This document shows, piece by piece, positions 47,410-62,094 of a stretch of 64,000 nt of DNA. This stretch comes from a bacterium. Its GTDB lineage: Bacteria; Zhuqueibacterota; Zhuqueibacteria; Residuimicrobiales; Krinioviventaceae. The notes beneath the pieces are model-generated. The model was not told the origin of the DNA. It made no database searches and was given only the letters and a program-made list of their open reading frames with translations. Position numbers and translations under genes: made by a program. Where the stretch lies: NCBI GenBank assembly GCA_963693055.1, contig OY843751.1:2656001-2720000 (forward strand). Reading direction: 5' to 3'. Numbering within the stretch: position 1 is the stretch's first letter; each line of letters opens with the position of its first letter.

Positions 47410-49179
47410 TTGAAAGGAAATAAGCAGGTTTTGTTAACTAAACTTATCCATAATGGAATTATTGTTCCGGATCCCCCAAAATATCATGGTGTTACCTTAA
47501 AAGTCAAAGATCAACAAATTAAACTTTCCCCCAAACAGGAAGAAATGGCGTATGCCTGGGCAAAAAAGCAAGGAACACCTTATGTAGAAGATCTTGTTTT
47601 TGTTAAAAATTTTCTCAAAGATTTTAGTCTTGCCCTTGGATTTAAAAAAGCACTAAAACTCGATGAAATTGATTTTACACCTGTTAATAAAATTGTTGAA
47701 AAAGAGCGTATAGCTCGTGAGGCCATGAGCAAGGAAGATAAAAAACTGCTTGCAGCAAAACGTAAAGAGATTCGTGAAGAGTTGAAAGAGAAATATGGTT
47801 TTGCTTCAACTGGTGATGAGAGAATAGAACTTGCGAATTATTTAACAGAGCCCAGTGGAATTTTTATGGGTAGGGGTAAGCATCCATTACGTGGAAGATG
47901 GAAAGAAGGTGCCGCTCAAAAAGATGTAACTTTAAATCTGAGTCCAGATGCCCCCGTTCCACCCGGAGATTGGAAGGAAATTGTTTGGCAGCCTGATTCT
48001 TTATGGGTAGCACGATGGGATGACAAGCTGTCAGGAAAACTTAAATACATCTGGCTTCACGATACTGCTCCTATCAAACAGGCTCGTGAAGCAAAGAAAT
48101 TTGATAAAGCTCTTGAATTAAATTCACGCATTGAACAAGTTAGAAAATCTCTGGAAAAAGATTTACAAAGCGATGAATTCAAGGTCCGTAAAGTTGCAAC
48201 CGCATGTTTTCTGATCGATGCATTATGTCTTCGTGTTGGTGATGAAAAAGATCCTGAAGAAGCCGATACCGTAGGTGCTACAACTTTACGCCCTGAACAT
48301 ATTAAATTCCTCAAAGATGGTCGCGTAGAGTTTCGTTTTTTGGGTAAAGACTCTGTATTATGGGATAAAAAGATAGAGCTACCGGATTTTGTTAAAGATA
48401 ATTTGAAAGAATTGTCTGAAAAAGCCAGACCCTCGACAAATAGTTTTGGTAAAGTCAAGCATGAAGCATATAATAAACCGCAATTGTTTCCAGATATTAC
48501 CAGCCGTAATGTTAATGCTTATTTATCAAATCATATGAAAGGTTTGACTGCCAAGGTTTTTCGTACACACCATGCTACCAATGTTGTTAAAACTTCATTA
48601 AATAATTCTAATGTTGTGAAAACTGATCCTGAATATGTTAAATGGGAAGCAACAGTTAACGCAAACCTTGAAGCTGCAATTTTATGTAATCATACAAAGC
48701 AGCCACCCAAAAATTGGGCAGAGCGCAAAGTTAAATTTAGAGAACGTGAAAAGAGTGCCAAGGAAAGAATTGAAAATATAAAAGCTTTGATCAAAACTTT
48801 AAAGCAAGAAATTAAAGATCTTAAAGTAGAATATAAAGAAAAGAAAGAAGCTGCCCCTAATAAAGCTCAGCGAAAAAAAGTTAAAGAACGTTACGATAAA
48901 AAAATTCAGGCTAAAAAGAACAGGCTGGAAACTACCATACAAAGAGAAGAGAAAGCACAAATATCAATAGGAAAACTACGTGCACAAAAAGCCATAGCTT
49001 CTCAAAACAGAACATGGAACCTGGGTACTAGCCAAAAATCATATATTGATCCTAGAGTATTTCACGAATGGGGAAAATCTGTTGATTATGATGTTATAGG
49101 AAAATACTATTCAGCAACACTACAACGCAAGTTTATGTGGGTTAAAGAGCAGGATAACGATGAAAATGAAACTGCTTGA
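47410..49179 (+). CDS. DNA topoisomerase IB, eukaryotic/archaeal long form
   Basis: HNG, EPSGIFMGRGKHP, LRVGDEK, ADTVG, FLGKDS, LTAKVFRT, AILCNH, coiled-coil linker, LGTSQKSYIDPR. Confidence 0.95.
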   Translation: MKGNKQVLLTKLIHNGIIVPDPPKYHGVTLKVKDQQIKLSPKQEEMAYAWAKKQGTPYVEDLVFVKNFLKDFSLALGFKKALKLDEIDFTPVNKIVEKERIAREAMSKEDKKLLAAKRKEIREELKEKYGFASTGDERIELANYLTEPSGIFMGRGKHPLRGRWKEGAAQKDVTLNLSPDAPVPPGDWKEIVWQPDSLWVARWDDKLSGKLKYIWLHDTAPIKQAREAKKFDKALELNSRIEQVRKSLEKDLQSDEFKVRKVATACFLIDALCLRVGDEKDPEEADTVGATTLRPEHIKFLKDGRVEFRFLGKDSVLWDKKIELPDFVKDNLKELSEKARPSTNSFGKVKHEAYNKPQLFPDITSRNVNAYLSNHMKGLTAKVFRTHHATNVVKTSLNNSNVVKTDPEYVKWEATVNANLEAAILCNHTKQPPKNWAERKVKFREREKSAKERIENIKALIKTLKQEIKDLKVEYKEKKEAAPNKAQRKKVKERYDKKIQAKKNRLETTIQREEKAQISIGKLRAQKAIASQNRTWNLGTSQKSYIDPRVFHEWGKSVDYDVIGKYYSATLQRKFMWVKEQDNDENETA

Positions 49180-53661: not shown

Positions 53662-54027
53662 ATGTTCAAGCTTACCGTTCATTCTTCGTTTTCTGCAGCT
53701 CATCGTCTTGTTGATTATTCAGGCGCTTGTCAGAGAATCCATGGTCATAATTGGAAAGTCAGGGCAACAATAGCTTCTGATCAATTAGATGACCTGGGAA
53801 TGGTGATGGATTTATATGAACTTGAAACCATATTAAACTCAACTTTGAAGAAATTTGATCATTATATTATTAATGATATTGAACCATTTACGGAGATTAA
53901 TCCAACTTCTGAAAATTTGGCTAAATTTATATATTATGATATAAAAAAACAATTATCAGCACCTATAAAAATGGTACAGGTTGAACTTTTAGAAACCGAT
54001 GATTTCTCTGTAACATTTGCTGAATAA
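53662..54027 (+). CDS. queD: 6-carboxy-5,6,7,8-tetrahydropterin synthase
   Basis: FSAAHRL, C..IHGHNW, DH, PTSENLA, ET. Confidence 0.93.
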   Translation: MFKLTVHSSFSAAHRLVDYSGACQRIHGHNWKVRATIASDQLDDLGMVMDLYELETILNSTLKKFDHYIINDIEPFTEINPTSENLAKFIYYDIKKQLSAPIKMVQVELLETDDFSVTFAE

Positions 54028-54048
54028 CTAAAAAAGATTAAATATTTC

Positions 54049-54076
54049 TTGACTATTGTTGTTTAAATGATATATT
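54049..54076 (+). promoter_or_regulatory. Sigma-70-type promoter of aro operon
   Basis: TTGACT-N16-TATATT with TG extension. Confidence 0.55.
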
Positions 54077-54121
54077 TAAATACTCTATAGCGGAAGAATA
54101 TAAATTGAGAAAAACCTGAAT

Positions 54122-54190
54122 ATGCAATTTTATTTTGAAAATTATTATTATTTTTTTATCGCCTTTGTAGCGGGAGGGATTAGCGTGTAA
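54122..54190 (+). CDS. Phe/Tyr-rich attenuator leader peptide MQFYFENYYYFFIAFVAGGISV
   Basis: 5 Phe + 4 Tyr in first 15 codons; lies between promoter and attenuator hairpins. Confidence 0.85.
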   Translation: MQFYFENYYYFFIAFVAGGISV

Positions 54191-54251
54191 ATGGATTTTT
54201 TTTTCTAGCTAACCCCACCCACTGCTTTCACAAAGTAGTGGGTTTTTTTTT
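54167..54251 (+). terminator. Attenuator: terminator with overlapping antiterminator
   Basis: Terminator 54217-54228/54232-54243 plus T-run; antiterminator 54167-54184 pairs with 54208-54225. Confidence 0.85.
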
Positions 54252-54268
54252 ATGTATAAGGATATGAA

Positions 54269-54526
54269 ATGGAATTGTCAGAACTTCGAAAAGAAATTGA
54301 TTTAATTGATGAAGAAATTTTGAATTTGCTTTCTAAACGTGCCAATGTTGCTATTGATATTGGTGATTTTAAAAGTAAAAACAATCTTGAAATTTTTAAT
54401 AAAGACCGGGAAGATAAAATTTTTGAAAATTTGATTAATAAAAATAATGGTCCGCTAAGTGATAACGCTGTTCGGGCTATATTTGAACAAATCATTGTAA
54501 TCTGCAGAGATTTACAAAAGCTCTGA
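54269..54526 (+). CDS. Monofunctional chorismate mutase (AroQ class)
   Basis: LSELRKEID.ID.EIL.LLSKR, IG..K, RE. Confidence 0.93.
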   Translation: MELSELRKEIDLIDEEILNLLSKRANVAIDIGDFKSKNNLEIFNKDREDKIFENLINKNNGPLSDNAVRAIFEQIIVICRDLQKL

Positions 54527-54552: not shown

Positions 54553-55569
54553 TTGGTAATTGTCATGAAAGATAGTGCGTCAGATGAAATGATTGCAATT
54601 GTATCTGACAAACTTGTTGAGCTTGGTTTTGACGTTCACAAAGTTGTGGGTGTTAACAAGACCATAATAGGTGCAATAGGTGATAAACGCGGTATAGATA
54701 TAAGACAATTTGAAATAATGGAAGGCGTTCAGGAAGTTGTTCGCATTACTGAACCTTATAAACTTGCAGGACGTACATTTCATCAGGAAAATTCAGTTGT
54801 TAAAGTTAAGGAAACATCTTTTGGTGGTGACGAAATACATGTAATTGCTGGTCCTTGCTCTATTGAAAGTGAAGATCAATTATTTACAATTGCTGAATTG
54901 GTTAAAAAAGCCGGGGCCACAGTACTTCGTGGTGGTGCTTTTAAACCACGTACATCTCCTTATAGCTTTCAGGGAATGGGAAAAGAAGGTTTACAATTGC
55001 TACAAAAAGCCGGAAAAGAATATAATTTACCCACTGTCTCTGAGATTATGCGTGAAAATCAGGTTGATTTAATGTGTGAATATGTCGACATTCTTCAAGT
55101 GGGCGCTCGGAATATGCAAAATTTTTCACTTTTAAAAGAACTTGGAAAAACTAAAACACCAATATTACTAAAGCGTGGTCTTGCTGCAACAATTGAAGAA
55201 TTTTTGATGGCAGCAGAATATATTATGGCTGGTGGAAATTATAATGTAATCTTGTGTGAACGTGGTATTCGTACTTTTGAAAATTATACCCGAAATACAT
55301 TAGATATTTCTGCTATACCTGTCGTCCACAAGTTGAGTCATTTACCTATTATTGCCGATCCCAGTCATGGAACTGGTATTCGTGATAAAGTACCTCCAAT
55401 GGCAAGAGCAGCTATTGCGGCCGGTGCTGATGGCTTGACCATTGAAGTACATCATGAACCTGAAAAAGCCTTCTCTGATGGTGCTCAGTCATTGTATCCT
55501 AAACAATTTGAACGGTTAATGGAAGAGCTTCGAATGATTGCATGGGCTATAGGTCGTAAAATTAAATAG
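54553..55569 (+). CDS. aroF: DAHP synthase type I-beta with N-terminal regulatory domain
   Basis: AGPCSIE, KPRTSPYSFQG, GARNMQN, KRG, CERGIRTFE, DPSH. Confidence 0.97.
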   Translation: MVIVMKDSASDEMIAIVSDKLVELGFDVHKVVGVNKTIIGAIGDKRGIDIRQFEIMEGVQEVVRITEPYKLAGRTFHQENSVVKVKETSFGGDEIHVIAGPCSIESEDQLFTIAELVKKAGATVLRGGAFKPRTSPYSFQGMGKEGLQLLQKAGKEYNLPTVSEIMRENQVDLMCEYVDILQVGARNMQNFSLLKELGKTKTPILLKRGLAATIEEFLMAAEYIMAGGNYNVILCERGIRTFENYTRNTLDISAIPVVHKLSHLPIIADPSHGTGIRDKVPPMARAAIAAGADGLTIEVHHEPEKAFSDGAQSLYPKQFERLMEELRMIAWAIGRKIK

Positions 55570-55578
55570 GATTTAATA

Positions 55579-56688
55579 ATGGATACCAATAATCGTTTTA
55601 AAACAATTGCCATAGTAGGAGTAGGACTTATTGGTGGTTCTCTGGGTATGGCACTGAAACGAAAAGGCTTTAAAGGAACTATCGTTGGCATTGATAATCC
55701 TTATACGCTTGAAGATGCTATAAAGAGAAAAGCAGTCGATAAGGTTTATCCCATTGATCAACTCAAAGAGGGTGTAGCAACAGCTGATCTGGTTTTTCTT
55801 TGTACACCAATAGATGAAATAGTTAACCTGATCAAAATTGTTGGTAATTATGTAAAACCAAATACTTTGATTACGGATGTTGGCAGTATTAAGCGTAGAA
55901 TAGTTGAAACCGCCAATTTGCATATACCACGCGAATGCGATTTTATTGGTGGTCATCCCATGGCTGGTTCTGAATTTAGAAGTATCAAAGCCGCTGATCC
56001 ATTTTTGTTCGAGAACACAATTTATGTTTTAACTCCAACTCGGCCTTTAGATGAATCTACACGTAAAGCTTTTGGAGAGTTGTTGGAATCAATTGGTGCC
56101 AAAGTATTATTGATGCTTCCCAAGCTGCACGATGAAATTGCTGCTGCAGTTAGTCATTTACCACAAATGGCTGCTGTAGCCTTGATGAATATGGTTGCTG
56201 AAAAGCAAAAAGAAAGTCCGCATTTTATGAAAATGGCTGCGGGTGGTTTCAGAGATATGACACGTATTGCATCCAGTCCATATGGTATTTGGGAACATAT
56301 TCGTCAAACAAATTCAGATATGATTATTGAGTATATTGATGCATATATAAAAGAATTGGAAAAAGTCAAAAAGATATTATTAACACCGGAATTGGAAACA
56401 TATTTTGAGAGCTCTGCTAAAAACAGGCTCAATATCCCTAGTGATACAAAGGGCTTTTTACGTCCTCATTTTGATATTTCAGTAGCAGTTGAGGACAAAC
56501 CTGGAATGATTGCTATTATAGCGAATACATTGAATGATGAGAATATTAATATCAAGGATATTGAAGTATTGAAAATCAGAGAAGATGAAGGTGGAACAAT
56601 ACGTTTGGCTTTTACAACAGAAAATGATAGAGAAGCCGCTATTGCGTTGTTAAAAGCCAAGGGACTTGAATGTGGAAAGAGGGATTGA
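55579..56688 (+). CDS. tyrA: Prephenate dehydrogenase with C-terminal ACT domain
   Basis: GVGLIGGS, DVGSIK, GGHPMAGSE, SHLPQ, GFRDMTRIA, EDKPG. Confidence 0.95.
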   Translation: MDTNNRFKTIAIVGVGLIGGSLGMALKRKGFKGTIVGIDNPYTLEDAIKRKAVDKVYPIDQLKEGVATADLVFLCTPIDEIVNLIKIVGNYVKPNTLITDVGSIKRRIVETANLHIPRECDFIGGHPMAGSEFRSIKAADPFLFENTIYVLTPTRPLDESTRKAFGELLESIGAKVLLMLPKLHDEIAAAVSHLPQMAAVALMNMVAEKQKESPHFMKMAAGGFRDMTRIASSPYGIWEHIRQTNSDMIIEYIDAYIKELEKVKKILLTPELETYFESSAKNRLNIPSDTKGFLRPHFDISVAVEDKPGMIAIIANTLNDENINIKDIEVLKIREDEGGTIRLAFTTENDREAAIALLKAKGLECGKRD

Positions 56689-56689
56689 A

Positions 56690-57973
56690 ATGAATGAACG
56701 TTTAATTAAACCTGCTGCCAAATTAAATGGCACTCTATTAATGCCTGGTGATAAATCAATTTCTCACCGCGCTTTGATCCTTTCGTCAATTGCCAACGGT
56801 GATTGTAAAATCACCGGTTTGTCTGATGCTGTTGACATCCAGAATACAGCCAATTGTTTAAAATCTCTTGGTATTTCTATTGAAGAAAAGGATAACAGTG
56901 TAATTGTTCATGGCAAAGGTATGTTGGGAATGTCAGAACCTTCAGTTGTTCTTGACGCAGGAAATTCCGGCACTACTATTCGTCTTTTATCTGGTATATT
57001 GGCAGCGTTACCCTTTACAACAGAAATAACCGGTGATGAATCCTTGCAAAAACGTCCAATGCGACGAATTATAGAGCCTCTTGAATTAATGGGTGCCCAG
57101 ATAGACAGCGCGGACTTTAAAGCACCTTTAAAAATCCGTGGAAATCATTTACGTGCTATTGACTATGCCTCGCCTGTTGCAAGTGCTCAGGTTAAATCCT
57201 GTATTTTATTGGCAGGTTTGTATGCACGTGGACTAACCCGTGTTACTGAAACCTCTGAATCTCGTAATCATACAGAATTGATGTTGCGTGAATTTAATGC
57301 AAATATACATTTTAATCCTGGCATGGCTGGCGTTCGAGGTCCTGCTGAGCTAGAATCAACAGACATTGACGTTCCCGGAGATATATCCGCAGCAGCATTT
57401 TTCCTTGTTGCTGGCTCATTATTAAATGGTTCAGAAATTGTAATGCCCAATATTGGAATCAACACAACCCGTACAGGTATTCTTGATGCCTTGACAACAA
57501 TGGGCGCCATGATTGATAAATCAGATGAAAATTCTATGAACCATGAAGACCGCGCTACTTTGACTGTAAAATCAACCATGTTAATGCCTACTCATTTGGG
57601 CGGTTCATTAATACCCAGAATAATTGATGAAATTCCAATTATTGCTGTTGCAGCAACTCAGGCACCTGGTACAACAATTATCAAAGATGCTGGTGAATTG
57701 CGTGTTAAAGAATCTGACCGCATTAAAACTGTGGTTGACAATCTAAAACGTATGAAAGCTAATATACGTGAGATCAAAGATGGAATGATCATTGATGGTC
57801 CATCAAAACTCAAAGGTGCAGAGATTGACAGCTTTGGAGATCACCGTATTGCTATGGCGTTTGCAATTGCTGGTTTGGTTGCTGAAGGAGAAACATTGAT
57901 CAAAAATACAGATTGTGTTGACACTTCGTTTCCAGGATTTTTTGACAAGCTGGAGTCGTTACGTAATGATTGA
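56690..57973 (+). CDS. aroA: EPSP synthase
   Basis: PGDKSISHR, DAGNSGTT, SAQVKS, ELRVKESDR, DHRIAM. Confidence 0.98.
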   Translation: MNERLIKPAAKLNGTLLMPGDKSISHRALILSSIANGDCKITGLSDAVDIQNTANCLKSLGISIEEKDNSVIVHGKGMLGMSEPSVVLDAGNSGTTIRLLSGILAALPFTTEITGDESLQKRPMRRIIEPLELMGAQIDSADFKAPLKIRGNHLRAIDYASPVASAQVKSCILLAGLYARGLTRVTETSESRNHTELMLREFNANIHFNPGMAGVRGPAELESTDIDVPGDISAAAFFLVAGSLLNGSEIVMPNIGINTTRTGILDALTTMGAMIDKSDENSMNHEDRATLTVKSTMLMPTHLGGSLIPRIIDEIPIIAVAATQAPGTTIIKDAGELRVKESDRIKTVVDNLKRMKANIREIKDGMIIDGPSKLKGAEIDSFGDHRIAMAFAIAGLVAEGETLIKNTDCVDTSFPGFFDKLESLRND

Positions 57974-58841
57974 TGCCATGACCCGAGTTTTAGCTGTAAT
58001 TGGCGATCCCATTGAACACAGTTTGTCACCGCTTATGCAGAATTGGTTTATCCGGAAAACCGGAATAAATGCTGTTTATACTGCATTTCATGTTAATCCA
58101 AAAGATGTTAAAGATTGTGTAGCCGGTATGCGTGCAATGAATATTGCTGGGTTGAATGTAACAGCACCACACAAACAACTCGTTGTCGAACATGCTGACT
58201 CTGTGTCTAATGAAGTAGAATTATTGGGTGCTTCTAATACACTTGTAAATACTGATGGAAAAATTTCTGCATATGTAACGGACCCTTTTGGTTTTATTGA
58301 ATCTCTTGGTTCTGAAAAAAATCGTTTCAAGAATGCATCGGTTGTTTTGTTTGGTGCTGGTGGTGCTGCAATGTCTATTGTGTATGCATTATCTAAATTA
58401 AAGGTAAAAAAGGTCTTTATAACAGATCTGTATCCTGAAAAAGCTTCTGATTTGCAAAAAATGGCTACCCATGATCTCAATATGACAGATGTAACCATTA
58501 TCGATCCTGCCAATAAAGATAAATCCGATATCATTCGGGATGCTGATGTTTTAATTAATGCTACTGCTGTTGGTATGCATCCACTGGTTGGTAAATCTGT
58601 AATTGATGATTTTACTCCTATTGCTCCTAAGCATTTTATTTACGATCTTGTATATAATCCCGGTGTTACACATTTTATGCATAATGCACAAAAACAGGGT
58701 GCAAGCGTACAAAACGGACTCGAGATGTTGATTTTTCAAGGTCTTGAATCTTTTCGGTTATTTACCGGAGAACCTGTTCAGCTCAATGAAAAAGAGCTGA
58801 GTGAATTAAAATCTATTATGAATAAGGCTTTAGGTTTATGA
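57966..58841 (+). CDS. aroE: Shikimate dehydrogenase
   Basis: HSLSP, NVT.PHK, TD..GF, GAGGAA, NAT.VGM, DLVYNP. Confidence 0.96.
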   Translation: MIDAMTRVLAVIGDPIEHSLSPLMQNWFIRKTGINAVYTAFHVNPKDVKDCVAGMRAMNIAGLNVTAPHKQLVVEHADSVSNEVELLGASNTLVNTDGKISAYVTDPFGFIESLGSEKNRFKNASVVLFGAGGAAMSIVYALSKLKVKKVFITDLYPEKASDLQKMATHDLNMTDVTIIDPANKDKSDIIRDADVLINATAVGMHPLVGKSVIDDFTPIAPKHFIYDLVYNPGVTHFMHNAQKQGASVQNGLEMLIFQGLESFRLFTGEPVQLNEKELSELKSIMNKALGL

Positions 58842-60043
58842 ATAAAATTAGGTTTCTGACTGCCGGAGAGTCTCACGGACAAGCGTTGAATGCTATAATT
58901 GAGGGACTTCCAGCCAATCTTGAAATCAATGAAGTAGAAATACGTCATGATCTTGCCCGCAGACAGCGCGGCTATGGCCGTGGTGGCAGAATGCAGATCG
59001 AAAAAGATTATGCAAGAATTATGACAGGTGTAAGATACGGAAAAACATTAGGTAGTCCTGTTTCTCTATTACTTGAGAACAAAGACTGGCCCAACTGGAC
59101 TGAGAAAATGTCTGTTACACCTGTTGACAATCCTGTCCCCAAGTTACAAATGCCACGTCCGGGGCATGCTGATTTTTCCGGTATGGTTAAATATCAGCAG
59201 GATGATTTACGCAACTTGTTGGAGCGATCATCGGCACGTGAAACAACAATGCGTGTTGCAGTAGGTGCTGTTTGCAGGAAATTGTTGTCTGAATTTGGCA
59301 TTCAAATCTATGGTCATGTTGTAAGAATTGGATCGGTAACGTCAGATTTTTCTGGTTTAAATGTAACCCAAAAAGATTTTAACGATTCTGATTTTGTAAA
59401 AAGTTGGATTGATACCTTTTCCAAAGTTGAATCTGCCGATATGGCCTGTGCTGATGATACTGCCAATAAAGCGATGATGGATTTGGTTGATGAAGCAAAA
59501 GAAAAAGGTACATCTTTGGGGGGGCAGTATGAAATTATTGCAACCGGTTTGCCTGTAGGGTTAGGCAGCCATGTACACTGGGACCGTAAATTAGACGCTC
59601 ACATTGCTTATGCTATGATGAGTATTAATGCCATGAAATCCGTTGAAATTGGAATGGGTGTTGGTGTTGCTCAAAATCCTGGTAGTGCTGTACATGACCA
59701 GATTTATTATGATGAAAAAAACGGATATTATAGAACCAGTAATAACGCTGGTGGGCTGGAAGGCGGTATGACCAATGGTGAACCCGTAATTGCCCGTATT
59801 TCAATGAAACCCCTGCCAACGATGGTTACACCTTTAGATTCTGTTGATGTTAAAACCAAATCATCCAAACAGGCGCATTATGAACGTGCGGATGTTTGTG
59901 CTGTACCCGCTGCTGTAATTGTAGGTGAAGCCATGATGGCAATTGTGCTTGCCAATGCTTTAATTGACAAAATTGGCGGTGACTCGATTGAAGAGATGAA
60001 GCGAAACTATAAAGGATTACCTAATGTACCCTTGGGATGGTAA
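58838..60043 (+). CDS. aroC: Chorismate synthase
   Basis: TAGESHG, PRPGHAD, ERSSARET, GGLEGGMTNG. Confidence 0.98.
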   Translation: MNKIRFLTAGESHGQALNAIIEGLPANLEINEVEIRHDLARRQRGYGRGGRMQIEKDYARIMTGVRYGKTLGSPVSLLLENKDWPNWTEKMSVTPVDNPVPKLQMPRPGHADFSGMVKYQQDDLRNLLERSSARETTMRVAVGAVCRKLLSEFGIQIYGHVVRIGSVTSDFSGLNVTQKDFNDSDFVKSWIDTFSKVESADMACADDTANKAMMDLVDEAKEKGTSLGGQYEIIATGLPVGLGSHVHWDRKLDAHIAYAMMSINAMKSVEIGMGVGVAQNPGSAVHDQIYYDEKNGYYRTSNNAGGLEGGMTNGEPVIARISMKPLPTMVTPLDSVDVKTKSSKQAHYERADVCAVPAAVIVGEAMMAIVLANALIDKIGGDSIEEMKRNYKGLPNVPLGW

Positions 60044-60560
60044 AAACGTCTATTTTCTAGGATTTATGGCTTCCGGAAAATCAGCAATTGGTCGTGAATT
60101 TTCAAAAATGTTGGGTTGGCCTTTTTATGATACCGATGATCTTGTCGAACAAGCTGCCGGTAAAACAATCAGTGAAATTTTTGAGCAGGATGGAGAACAG
60201 GCATTTCGTGACCTTGAATCTCGAGTGGTTAAATCTGTTTCTGAAAAAAAACATCAGGTTGTTTCACTTGGTGGTGGTGCAATTATACGCCAGGATAACT
60301 GGAAATATATAATCGATTCAGGAATCACCATTGGGCTTATGGCACCTGTAAGTGTTTTGGCAGAACGTATTGCAAGGAAATCTCATCGTCCTTTAATGTA
60401 CAACTTGAAGGGTGATGAATTGATAAAAAAGATTGAATCCCTGCTTAAAGAACGTGAGCCTTTTTACATTCGCGCTCAATACAAATTTGAAAACACCGGA
60501 CTATTGACTGTTCATGATTTTACTCAGGAAATATTCAATACAATACGGGATGACATATGA
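60024..60560 (+). CDS. aroK: Shikimate kinase
   Basis: GFMASGKS, DTD, FR.LE, GGG, RPL. Confidence 0.96.
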   Translation: MYPWDGKNVYFLGFMASGKSAIGREFSKMLGWPFYDTDDLVEQAAGKTISEIFEQDGEQAFRDLESRVVKSVSEKKHQVVSLGGGAIIRQDNWKYIIDSGITIGLMAPVSVLAERIARKSHRPLMYNLKGDELIKKIESLLKEREPFYIRAQYKFENTGLLTVHDFTQEIFNTIRDDI

Positions 60561-61654
60561 AAACCGTTAATATAGATCTGGGTGAAAGAGGTTATGCAAT
60601 TCCAATAGGACCAGGTGTGCTGTCAAGTTTGCCTGAGCTATTAGTAAAACATGAAATACAGGAAGAATTGTACATCATTACCGATACCAATGTACACCAA
60701 TATTATCATCAAACAATAAAAGATTTATTTAATAAAACTGATATAAATCCTGTCATTTTTACTGTACCTGCAGGCGAAAAATCCAAATCTCTTGATGTTG
60801 CAAATCAACTTTATACACAATTACTTGAAAACAATGCTACCCGTAAAGCTGCAATTGTTGCCTTTGGCGGTGGAGTAGTAGGGGACCTGGCCGGTTTTAT
60901 TGCGGCAACTTTTATGAGAGGCGTTCCTTTTGTGCAAGTACCAACTACTATATTGAGTCAGGTTGACAGTAGTGTTGGCGGTAAAGTGGGTATAAATCAT
61001 CCATTGGGTAAAAATTTGATTGGTGCCTTTTATCAACCTGAATTTGTCCTTATTGATCCTGATGTTTTGGTAACTTTGCCGGAAAGAGAAATTAAAGCTG
61101 GAATAGCAGAAGTTATCAAATACAGTTTTATCTGGGATTATGATTTTTTTACCTCACTTTTCGATCATATTGATTCATTGATCTCATTGTCAGATACTAA
61201 ATATCTTGTCGATGTTTTGGCCAAATGTTGTGAGATAAAAGCAAATGTAGTAGAGCAGGATGAAAAAGAATCCGGTTTACGCAGTATATTAAACTTTGGT
61301 CATACGGCAGGTCATGCGCTTGAAGCCGTTACCGGTTATAATCACTTTCTCCATGGAGAAGCAGTATCTCATGGTATGCGTGCTGCAATTCATTTATCCA
61401 TGCTTGAGAACCGTATTGATAACAAAACTGCACAAAATGCACTTAAGCTAGTAGATTTATTAACCCCTCCTGAAATTCCATCTTTTGTAACCGTTGATGA
61501 TATTCTGCAAGCTACCCAAAAGGATAAAAAGCGTTCAAAAGCCGGCCAACTCTGGATATTGTTGGATGGTATTGGTAAATACGCAATGACCCGGGATGTT
61601 TCGAATGATCATATTAAATCAGCAGTTGAATTTATGATCAGGTACGCGCTATGA
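60557..61654 (+). CDS. aroB: 3-dehydroquinate synthase
   Basis: GGGVVGDLAGF, QVDSSVGGK, LNFGHT.GHALE, HGEAV. Confidence 0.98.
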   Translation: MKTVNIDLGERGYAIPIGPGVLSSLPELLVKHEIQEELYIITDTNVHQYYHQTIKDLFNKTDINPVIFTVPAGEKSKSLDVANQLYTQLLENNATRKAAIVAFGGGVVGDLAGFIAATFMRGVPFVQVPTTILSQVDSSVGGKVGINHPLGKNLIGAFYQPEFVLIDPDVLVTLPEREIKAGIAEVIKYSFIWDYDFFTSLFDHIDSLISLSDTKYLVDVLAKCCEIKANVVEQDEKESGLRSILNFGHTAGHALEAVTGYNHFLHGEAVSHGMRAAIHLSMLENRIDNKTAQNALKLVDLLTPPEIPSFVTVDDILQATQKDKKRSKAGQLWILLDGIGKYAMTRDVSNDHIKSAVEFMIRYAL

Positions 61655-62094
61655 TCAAAGTAATTGTCATCCATGGTCCCAATTTAAACTTGTTAGGTGA
61701 TAGAGAACCTGATGTTTATGGTACTTTAACACTGGATAATATAAACCAGGAAATAACCAAGCTTGCTAAATCTATTGATATATCTGTTGAATGTTATCAG
61801 TCTAATCATGAAGGTGAATTAATAGATTTCATTCACAATAATCGTCATTCTGCCAGCGGAATTGTAATTAATCCTGGTGCATATACGCATTATAGCTATG
61901 CAATACGTGATGCAATATCCGCAGTCAAACTGCCAACTATTGAAGTTCACTTGTCTGATATTCACAAGCGGGAAGATTTTCGCAAAATATCTGTCATTCA
62001 ACCGGTATGTATCCATCAAATATACGGTAAAGGTTTAGACAGTTACCTGGAGGGTCTGTTGTTTCTAAACCAATACTTGAAGAAGGATTTGTAA
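61651..62094 (+). CDS. aroQ: Type II 3-dehydroquinate dehydratase
   Basis: GPNLNLLG.REP.VYG, QSNHEG, NPGAYTH, EVHLS. Confidence 0.98.
   Translation: MIKVIVIHGPNLNLLGDREPDVYGTLTLDNINQEITKLAKSIDISVECYQSNHEGELIDFIHNNRHSASGIVINPGAYTHYSYAIRDAISAVKLPTIEVHLSDIHKREDFRKISVIQPVCIHQIYGKGLDSYLEGLLFLNQYLKKDL

Follow-up and report, generated by a model that had tools for sequence, protein, structure and literature searches.

Control of amino acid operons by ribosome-read leader peptides is a textbook mechanism that has long been known, and leaders which sense more than one amino acid are familiar from thrL and ilvL. With respect to the entry into the shikimate pathway, the primary paper on the aroR leader, which precedes the DAHP synthase gene aroF of Corynebacterium glutamicum, is said to be that of Neshat et al. 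2014. The uORFC-13-1 motif is reportedly due to Brewer et al. 2021, and the surveys of Panina 2001, Vitreschak 2004 and Lopatovskaya 2010 are said to be ones that may already predict Phe/Tyr leaders elsewhere. As described in the accessible parts of the respective papers, the aroR leader encodes Phe-Tyr-Phe and responds to Phe limitation while being unaffected by Tyr (PMC11802643); it is also listed by Mentz et al. (PMC4046766), and its control has been attributed to both amino acids (PMC7356990). In the portions available of other sources, the Acholeplasma uORFC-13-1 motif is a predicted Phe uORF before aroF (PMC8632094), a Shewanella table gives aroF-tyrA as a proposed Tyr-tRNA attenuator, citing Camakaris 1980 (PMC2659441), and the E. 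coli Tyr attenuator case is termed 'hypothesized' (PMC8632094). The main text of PMC2965389, so far as accessible, offers no aromatic example, and none of the searched terms is present in the available part of PMC4833913.

The locus described here lies in a 64,000-nucleotide stretch of bacterial DNA (the window), and we consider it very probably a functional, conserved leader-peptide attenuator. It resembles aroR, as the latter is described in the accessible texts, in its short Phe/Tyr leader ORF, ribosome stalling and control of shikimate entry, a functional analogy drawn by description. Unlike the Phe-Tyr-Phe of aroR, leaders of the KSB1 phylum have a mean of about 4 Phe and 4 Tyr codons together with a conserved intrinsic terminator, and they head seven shikimate genes along with chorismate mutase and tyrA. 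A predicted uORF and terminator before DAHP synthase are shared with uORFC-13-1, but that motif, in the available account, includes one or more Phe codons within a U-run, with no mention of a Tyr run, belongs to another phylum and is a prediction only. Similarly, the aroF-tyrA proposal invokes an attenuation that acts on DAHP synthase and tyrA in response to Tyr, but is a gamma-proteobacterial hypothesis for which the accessible text does not give a Tyr-rich leader. In general organization the KSB1 leader is like E. coli pheL-pheA and trpL, hisL and thrL (PMC11802643), with a cognate-codon-rich ORF, an antiterminator overlapping the 3' end of the ORF, and a G+C stem followed by a U-run. Unlike pheL, the window leader has Tyr codons too and its target is the common pathway rather than pheA; in contrast to the pheL/trpL class as a whole, the window's family has a weak protector (1:2) hairpin.

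The initial annotation had suggested that such a leader may be undescribed. This may hold for the KSB1 family, a phylum-wide sequence family that is absent from Rfam: the Phe_leader model RF01859 exceeded its 55-bit cut-off in none of 61 genomes (a sub-threshold match in the own genome is another site, not the leader), no Rfam family matched at gathering level in 20 loci, and the T-box riboswitch RF00230 gave no match at the leader. A description of the KSB1 leader was not found in the open literature, and neither was a demonstrated Tyr-responsive leader-peptide attenuator, subscription papers, including the comparative attenuator surveys, lying outside the search. It does not hold for the general idea, as the accessible texts already describe the Phe-Tyr-Phe leader of C. 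glutamicum aroR (PMC11802643, PMC4046766) and predict a Phe uORF before aroF in Acholeplasma (PMC8632094).

A Phe/Tyr-rich leader before the shikimate operon

From the sequence, a short leader, a 12-bp terminator with T-run and a competing stem that captures the terminator 5' arm had been proposed ahead of a complete shikimate operon. All four are recovered (Table 1): the leader as first noted, from the sequence and the ORF list, the terminator by scanning and shuffling, the competing stem by folding, and the operon through matches to all seven steps downstream.

Table 1. Features of the leader region and the operon that follows it, in window coordinates
Feature	Positions	Strand	Basis or remark
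sigma70-like promoter, TTGACT-16-TATATT, TG before -10	54049..54076	+	motif scan; predicted start near 54083
leader ORF, 22 codons	54122..54190	+	translation MQFYFENYYYFFIAFVAGGISV, 5 Phe + 4 Tyr
control codons 3-12 (FYFENYYYFF)	54128..54157	+	ribosome-position folding model
possible protector/pause hairpin (segment 1:2), weak, inferred	54158..54181	+	-6.4 kcal/mol
antiterminator 5' strand (segment 2), within leader ORF 3' end	54167..54184	+	folding, covariation
antiterminator 3' strand (segment 3)	54208..54225	+	folding, covariation; 54217-54225 common to terminator 5' arm
intrinsic terminator, 12-bp stem 54217-54243 + T-run	54217..54251	+	terminator scan, folding
type II chorismate mutase, heading the regulated genes	54269..54526	+	PF01817
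DAHP synthase, N-terminal ferredoxin-like domain	54553..55569	+	PF00793, PF18152
prephenate dehydrogenase TyrA, ACT domain	55579..56688	+	family match
aroA, EPSP synthase	56666..57973	+	ORF limits; true start perhaps ATG 8 codons in
aroE, shikimate dehydrogenase	57915..58841	+	ORF limits
aroC, chorismate synthase	58838..60043	+	family match
aroK, shikimate kinase	60024..60560	+	E 2e-44, under NCBIfam cut-offs
aroB, 3-dehydroquinate synthase	60557..61654	+	family match
aroQ, 3-dehydroquinate dehydratase of type II, closing the aromatic genes	61651..62094	+	family match

Nine of the first 15 codons of the leader specify Phe or Tyr. As a null, the identical geometric rule was run on the own genome, where it returned 1093 terminator-like hairpins, 605 of them with a similarly placed short ORF; among these 605 the window leader alone has 8 aromatic residues in 10 codons. 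At least 6 aromatic residues in 10 codons occur in 76 of the 97 called orthologous ORFs as against 5 of the 605 own-genome controls, the hairpin cut-off being -11 kcal/mol in the null and -9 in the homologue caller. The Shine-Dalgarno pairing of the leader ORF is weak, at -2.7 kcal/mol (family median -3.0; -3.5 or lower in 38 of 91), compared with -3.8 to -4.7 for chorismate mutase, DAHP synthase, tyrA, aroK, aroB and aroQ in the same operon and -2.6 for aroC.

The promoter-like site is by itself not above chance (3 found versus 5.4 expected). Across homologues, sites matching at least 9 of 12 positions and lying 45-110 nt before the leader ATG were found in 73 of 91, against 1 of 91 controls, although the control windows, taken inside the first gene, are lenient because intergenic DNA is more AT-rich. 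The terminator consists of 12 pairs (one G-U), a 3-nt loop and then 8 T; it is the sole terminator-like site in 53700-54500 (1 found versus 0.2 expected in shuffles), and its fold has a z-score of -5.3, with 0 of 200 shuffles equally stable. The competing stem, with 14 Watson-Crick pairs and one G-U over 18 positions, is the minimum free energy structure of 54160-54232 (-22.1 kcal/mol, z = -2.8).

The nine genes that follow comprise the seven shikimate steps, chorismate mutase and prephenate dehydrogenase, which overlap or are separated by short gaps, with no convincing terminator inside the operon. The DAHP synthase matches 1RZM/3PG9 across its full length; this Thermotoga enzyme is inhibited by Tyr and Phe, in agreement with the leader content. 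The gene immediately 5' of the leader promoter is queD (53662-54027, + strand), as it is in many relatives; in some, a queF-like C-terminus is present there. Tyr codons are read by queuosine-containing tRNA, and a queuosine link was considered on account of this neighbor; the leaders show Asn at 1.05x, Asp at 0.35x and His at 1.5x, which leaves the link unsupported.

Conservation across the phylum and Trp codons in operons with trp genes

In the best 30 DAHP synthase loci of 61 relatives, an ATG-started Phe/Tyr-rich ORF of 18-32 codons with the same terminator is present in 30 of 30. As the picks at these best-30 loci favored Phe/Tyr content, a caller using geometry only was written to remove the bias. 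A match at E <= 1e-100 occurs in 129 genomes of the phylum, of which 114 were taken, 15 weaker paralogue-level or fragmentary matches being omitted; 10 of the 114 are cut off upstream, leaving 104 evaluable genomes. The caller found an ORF in 97 of these; in 91, spanning 20 families, it qualified as an aromatic-rich leader, for which 4 or more aromatic residues within 10 codons were required. Five more leaders, which it had mis-picked or missed, were identified by hand (G013, G039, G084, G118, G163), and two are weak or ambiguous (G085, G096). The presence of Phe/Tyr-rich uORFs in relatives, which the initial annotation had made a check on its reading, is thus borne out. No leader was found in the remaining 6 of the 104 (G057, G149, G153-G156). 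At L207/G057, L159/G155, L151/G156 and L172/G149 the locus reads chorismate mutase-DAHP synthase or trpA-chorismate mutase-DAHP synthase, with leader and terminator absent and an apparently rearranged organization.

In 40 genomes checked, the gene order after the leader is largely retained, and trp genes were found downstream in none of the 40. The element is kept despite differing or even divergent upstream genes and at loci of about 60% GC, the own genome having 39%. These observations bear on the simplest alternative, namely a plain terminator of the queD transcript beside a chance stretch of AT-rich DNA. The low GC content of the genome and the position of queD, whose end lies 190 nt upstream with nothing else terminator-like in the interval, would be in its favor; survival of the element next to altered upstream genes and in GC-rich loci, the first rank of the leader among 605 controls and, in most homologues, a promoter-like site separating the leader from queD are against it. 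This explanation is already contradicted by the conservation and the null test, and we give it a negligible probability.

The leader peptides vary in length from 18 to 40 residues, and what is conserved is their composition rather than the order of residues. It is conceivable that an aromatic-rich nascent chain could contact the exit tunnel and arrest the ribosome in response to a free aromatic metabolite, as in TnaC, in place of codon-level starvation. The variable length and order of the peptides speak against such an arrest, and the residues that follow the aromatic run (SGR, SGK or VGG) mirror the antiterminator strand, a strand that falls in each of the three frames (56, 7 and 18 of 81), which makes this proposal extremely improbable. 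Returning to codon-level reading, Tyr is frame-specific across the leaders (363 in frame versus 32 and 86 in the other two frames), whereas Phe is barely so (316 versus 238 and 252), because T-runs encode Phe whatever the frame. Where the operon lacks trp genes, enrichment of the leaders over the long ORFs of the genome is 3.9x for Tyr and 3.3x for Phe, with Trp at 1.2x.

The chorismate mutase-DAHP synthase block comes after trpEGDCFBA in families f8, f10, f11 and f12, and in family f6 (L137-L140) it is split by an insertion of trpB2 and an ORF of about 270-350 residues, with 3 Trp codons in the leaders. All 21 leaders of operons that hold trp genes have 2-4 Trp codons on the same RNA chassis, while the 70 leaders of operons without them have none in 43 cases, one in 25 and two in 2. 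Family f11 contains both states, with 3 and 3 Trp codons where trp genes are present and 1 and 2 where they are not. Trp gain thus accompanies two distinct rearrangements, the trpE-operon fusion and the trpB2 insertion, with independence judged by family labels as kin are not independent. This appearance of Trp codons along with trp genes is the strongest sign available from sequence comparison that the codons are probably read for their amino acid.

The trpEGDCFBA-chorismate mutase-DAHP synthase supra-operons (L132-L136, L142-L148 and others) have mixed Trp/Tyr/Phe leaders and a strong 1:2 hairpin; the median energy of this hairpin is -22.6 kcal/mol in 21 leaders with trp genes versus -10.2 in 69 without. 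In the Acidobacteriota, L124:1000-1300 has a Phe/Tyr-rich leader and terminator before a chorismate mutase-pheA-DAHP synthase cluster. Among the matches listed, L124 is the only leader outside KSB1; the matches listed there are mostly from Acidobacteriota, with chorismate mutase-DAHP synthase after trpA and the 5' end of the operon beyond the 2.5-kb flank.

Competing stems and ribosome position

Folding with ribosome footprints was modeled with the A site at each codon, an assumed footprint extending 9 nt beyond it and a transcript ending before the basal 3' arm of the terminator. For the window leader the predicted probability that the terminator 5' arm is captured is 0.68-0.80 with the ribosome at codons 2-13, drops to 0.38 at codon 14, and is 0.0 both for Phe15 and for the stop; in this model Phe15 is too near the antiterminator for a role as a control codon. 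Of the 91 homologues, 85 have a capture probability above 0.5 when the ribosome occupies the aromatic run and 70 have one below 0.2 when it is at the stop; 64 show both, and the other 27 lack one or both. In 69 of 91, the final codon that still permits capture is at -1 to +3 relative to the end of the aromatic codons. The proposal that a stall on the aromatic run captures the terminator arm and arrival at the stop frees it is therefore reproduced, as far as the model goes.

With no ribosome the antiterminator is favored in 70 of 91 homologues. In the finished window transcript the terminator with the inner upstream stem reaches -26.3 kcal/mol versus -20.9 for the antiterminator, and at equilibrium the terminator wins at every ribosome position; across the homologues a stalled ribosome brings the terminator below 0.5 at equilibrium in just 23 of 91. 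As the terminator wins at equilibrium, the switch must therefore be kinetic, with the antiterminator forming first, which is how the antiterminator of the E. coli trp leader acts. Because the protector (1:2) hairpin is weak, the model predicts that an untranslated leader, or one that has lost its ATG, would give read-through rather than super-attenuation.

On alignment with MAFFT, RNAalifold recovered the terminator and did not recover the antiterminator. We accordingly scored antiterminator covariation in anchored columns that are independent of folding (89 of 91 rows, 74 of them distinct). The expectation of covarying stems was realized in part: of the six antiterminator positions examined, three show more pairing than shuffles do (43, 39 and 41 versus 35, 25 and 24; 9, 0 and 0 of 2000 shuffles, which disregard kinship, were as high), while at the other three pairing is no higher than in shuffles. 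At the covarying positions alternative Watson-Crick pairs occur across 5-8 families, and at the third of them the shared arm and both its partners change jointly in eight sequences from four families.

These features suggest the following mechanism. Transcription would begin near 54083 and a ribosome would initiate at 54122. When Phe and Tyr are plentiful, the ribosome would proceed beyond codon 14 and cover 54167-54184, leaving 54217-54225 free for the terminator to fold, and transcription would stop near 54250. If either amino acid is short, the ribosome would stall in codons 3-12, and 54167-54184 could pair with 54208-54225 before the terminator 3' arm is made; the resulting antitermination would allow transcription to enter chorismate mutase, DAHP synthase, tyrA and aroA-E-C-K-B-Q. 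Conservation, the null, ribosome-position folding, covariation and the tracking of trp genes by Trp codons all agree with the attenuator reading, and the element is most probably a ribosome-read transcription attenuator that would open the nine-gene operon to RNA polymerase whenever charged tRNA-Phe or tRNA-Tyr runs low. Of the pheL/trpL logic first ascribed to it, the leader, terminator, competing stem and codon placement stand, and the protector hairpin is weak.

Could a small molecule or an RNA-binding protein operate the switch instead, with the ORF as a by-product of a U-rich binding site? The weak Shine-Dalgarno pairing and the formation of the alternative folds without a ribosome are compatible with this, and the best Rfam match is a sub-threshold one to PyrR (RF00515; 21 bits versus 54 needed, E 1.6), although the genes downstream are aromatic and not pyrimidine ones. 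On the other hand, an ATG and open frame are co-positioned across 20 families, Tyr is frame-specific and Trp codons follow trp genes, the modeled switch point falls where the aromatic run ends, and aptamer-like conservation is not seen between the stems. Further, the own genome, a single contig rated 100% complete, has no match to T-box, TRAP or TrpR, and the absence of the first two counts against this possibility. We regard it as very unlikely.

As for which amino acids a ribosome-read attenuator would sense, codon content alone makes it likely that both Phe and Tyr are sensed. The same attenuator might in practice answer to one of them, Phe as in aroR or Tyr, and the accessible description of C. 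glutamicum aroR, whose Phe-Tyr-Phe leader responds to Phe and not Tyr (PMC11802643), offers a precedent. In addition, Phe codons arise readily in U-rich RNA and are not frame-specific, and prephenate dehydratase (pheA) is encoded at a separate locus outside the operon, upstream of which no leader was found in the own genome. Yet aroR has a single Tyr codon, whereas in the model YYY (codons 8-10) and FF (codons 11-12) of the window leader both fall inside the antitermination window. Moreover, among the 70 leaders whose operons lack trp genes, 65 contain two or more Phe together with two or more Tyr, YY occurring in 47 of the 70 and FF in 29, and the Tyr-dominated homologues G023 and G124 have 8 Tyr and just 1-2 Phe. 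Sensing of a single amino acid is hence unlikely. Taken to its full extent, the dual-sensing reading would have a phylum-wide attenuator that truly reads tRNA-Tyr and tRNA-Phe, gates the whole shikimate pathway, is protector-less and on by default, and has had its codons re-tuned, with Trp gained at least twice along with trp genes; we give this combination roughly an even chance.

Natural variants and other candidate leaders

The family supplies about 95 natural variants of one attenuator, their sensing codons differing according to which genes the operon holds, and hence material for a comparative study of tuning in multivalent attenuators. It also bears on whether Tyr codons drive attenuation, given that aroR, the sole tested Phe/Tyr leader found, reportedly ignores Tyr in the accessible accounts. 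Tyr sensing and codon re-tuning are the points worth experiment.

Elsewhere in the own genome we observed three further candidate attenuators, the genes after them being named by eye from translations: a His-rich leader and terminator before the his operon (G000:C1:2919258, - strand), a Trp-rich leader and terminator before trpE (G000:C1:1871583, - strand), and another before a stand-alone trpB2 (G000:C1:4335485, + strand). This uncultured phylum thus likely runs aromatic, Trp and His biosynthesis by E. coli-type attenuators that are missed in annotation. Thr/Ile-rich short ORFs with strong terminators at G000:C1:787225 (- strand) and 5476000 (+ strand) were rejected as support, the genes that follow apparently being neither thr nor ilv genes.

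A separate observation in the window concerns a topoisomerase IB of 589 residues (47410-49179, + strand; PF02919, PF01028 and PF14370), which is of the long eukaryote-like type. To our knowledge, bacteria usually carry just the short poxvirus-like topoisomerase IB. PF02919 gave a match in 38 of the 41 KSB1 relatives and in 0 of 14 control genomes.
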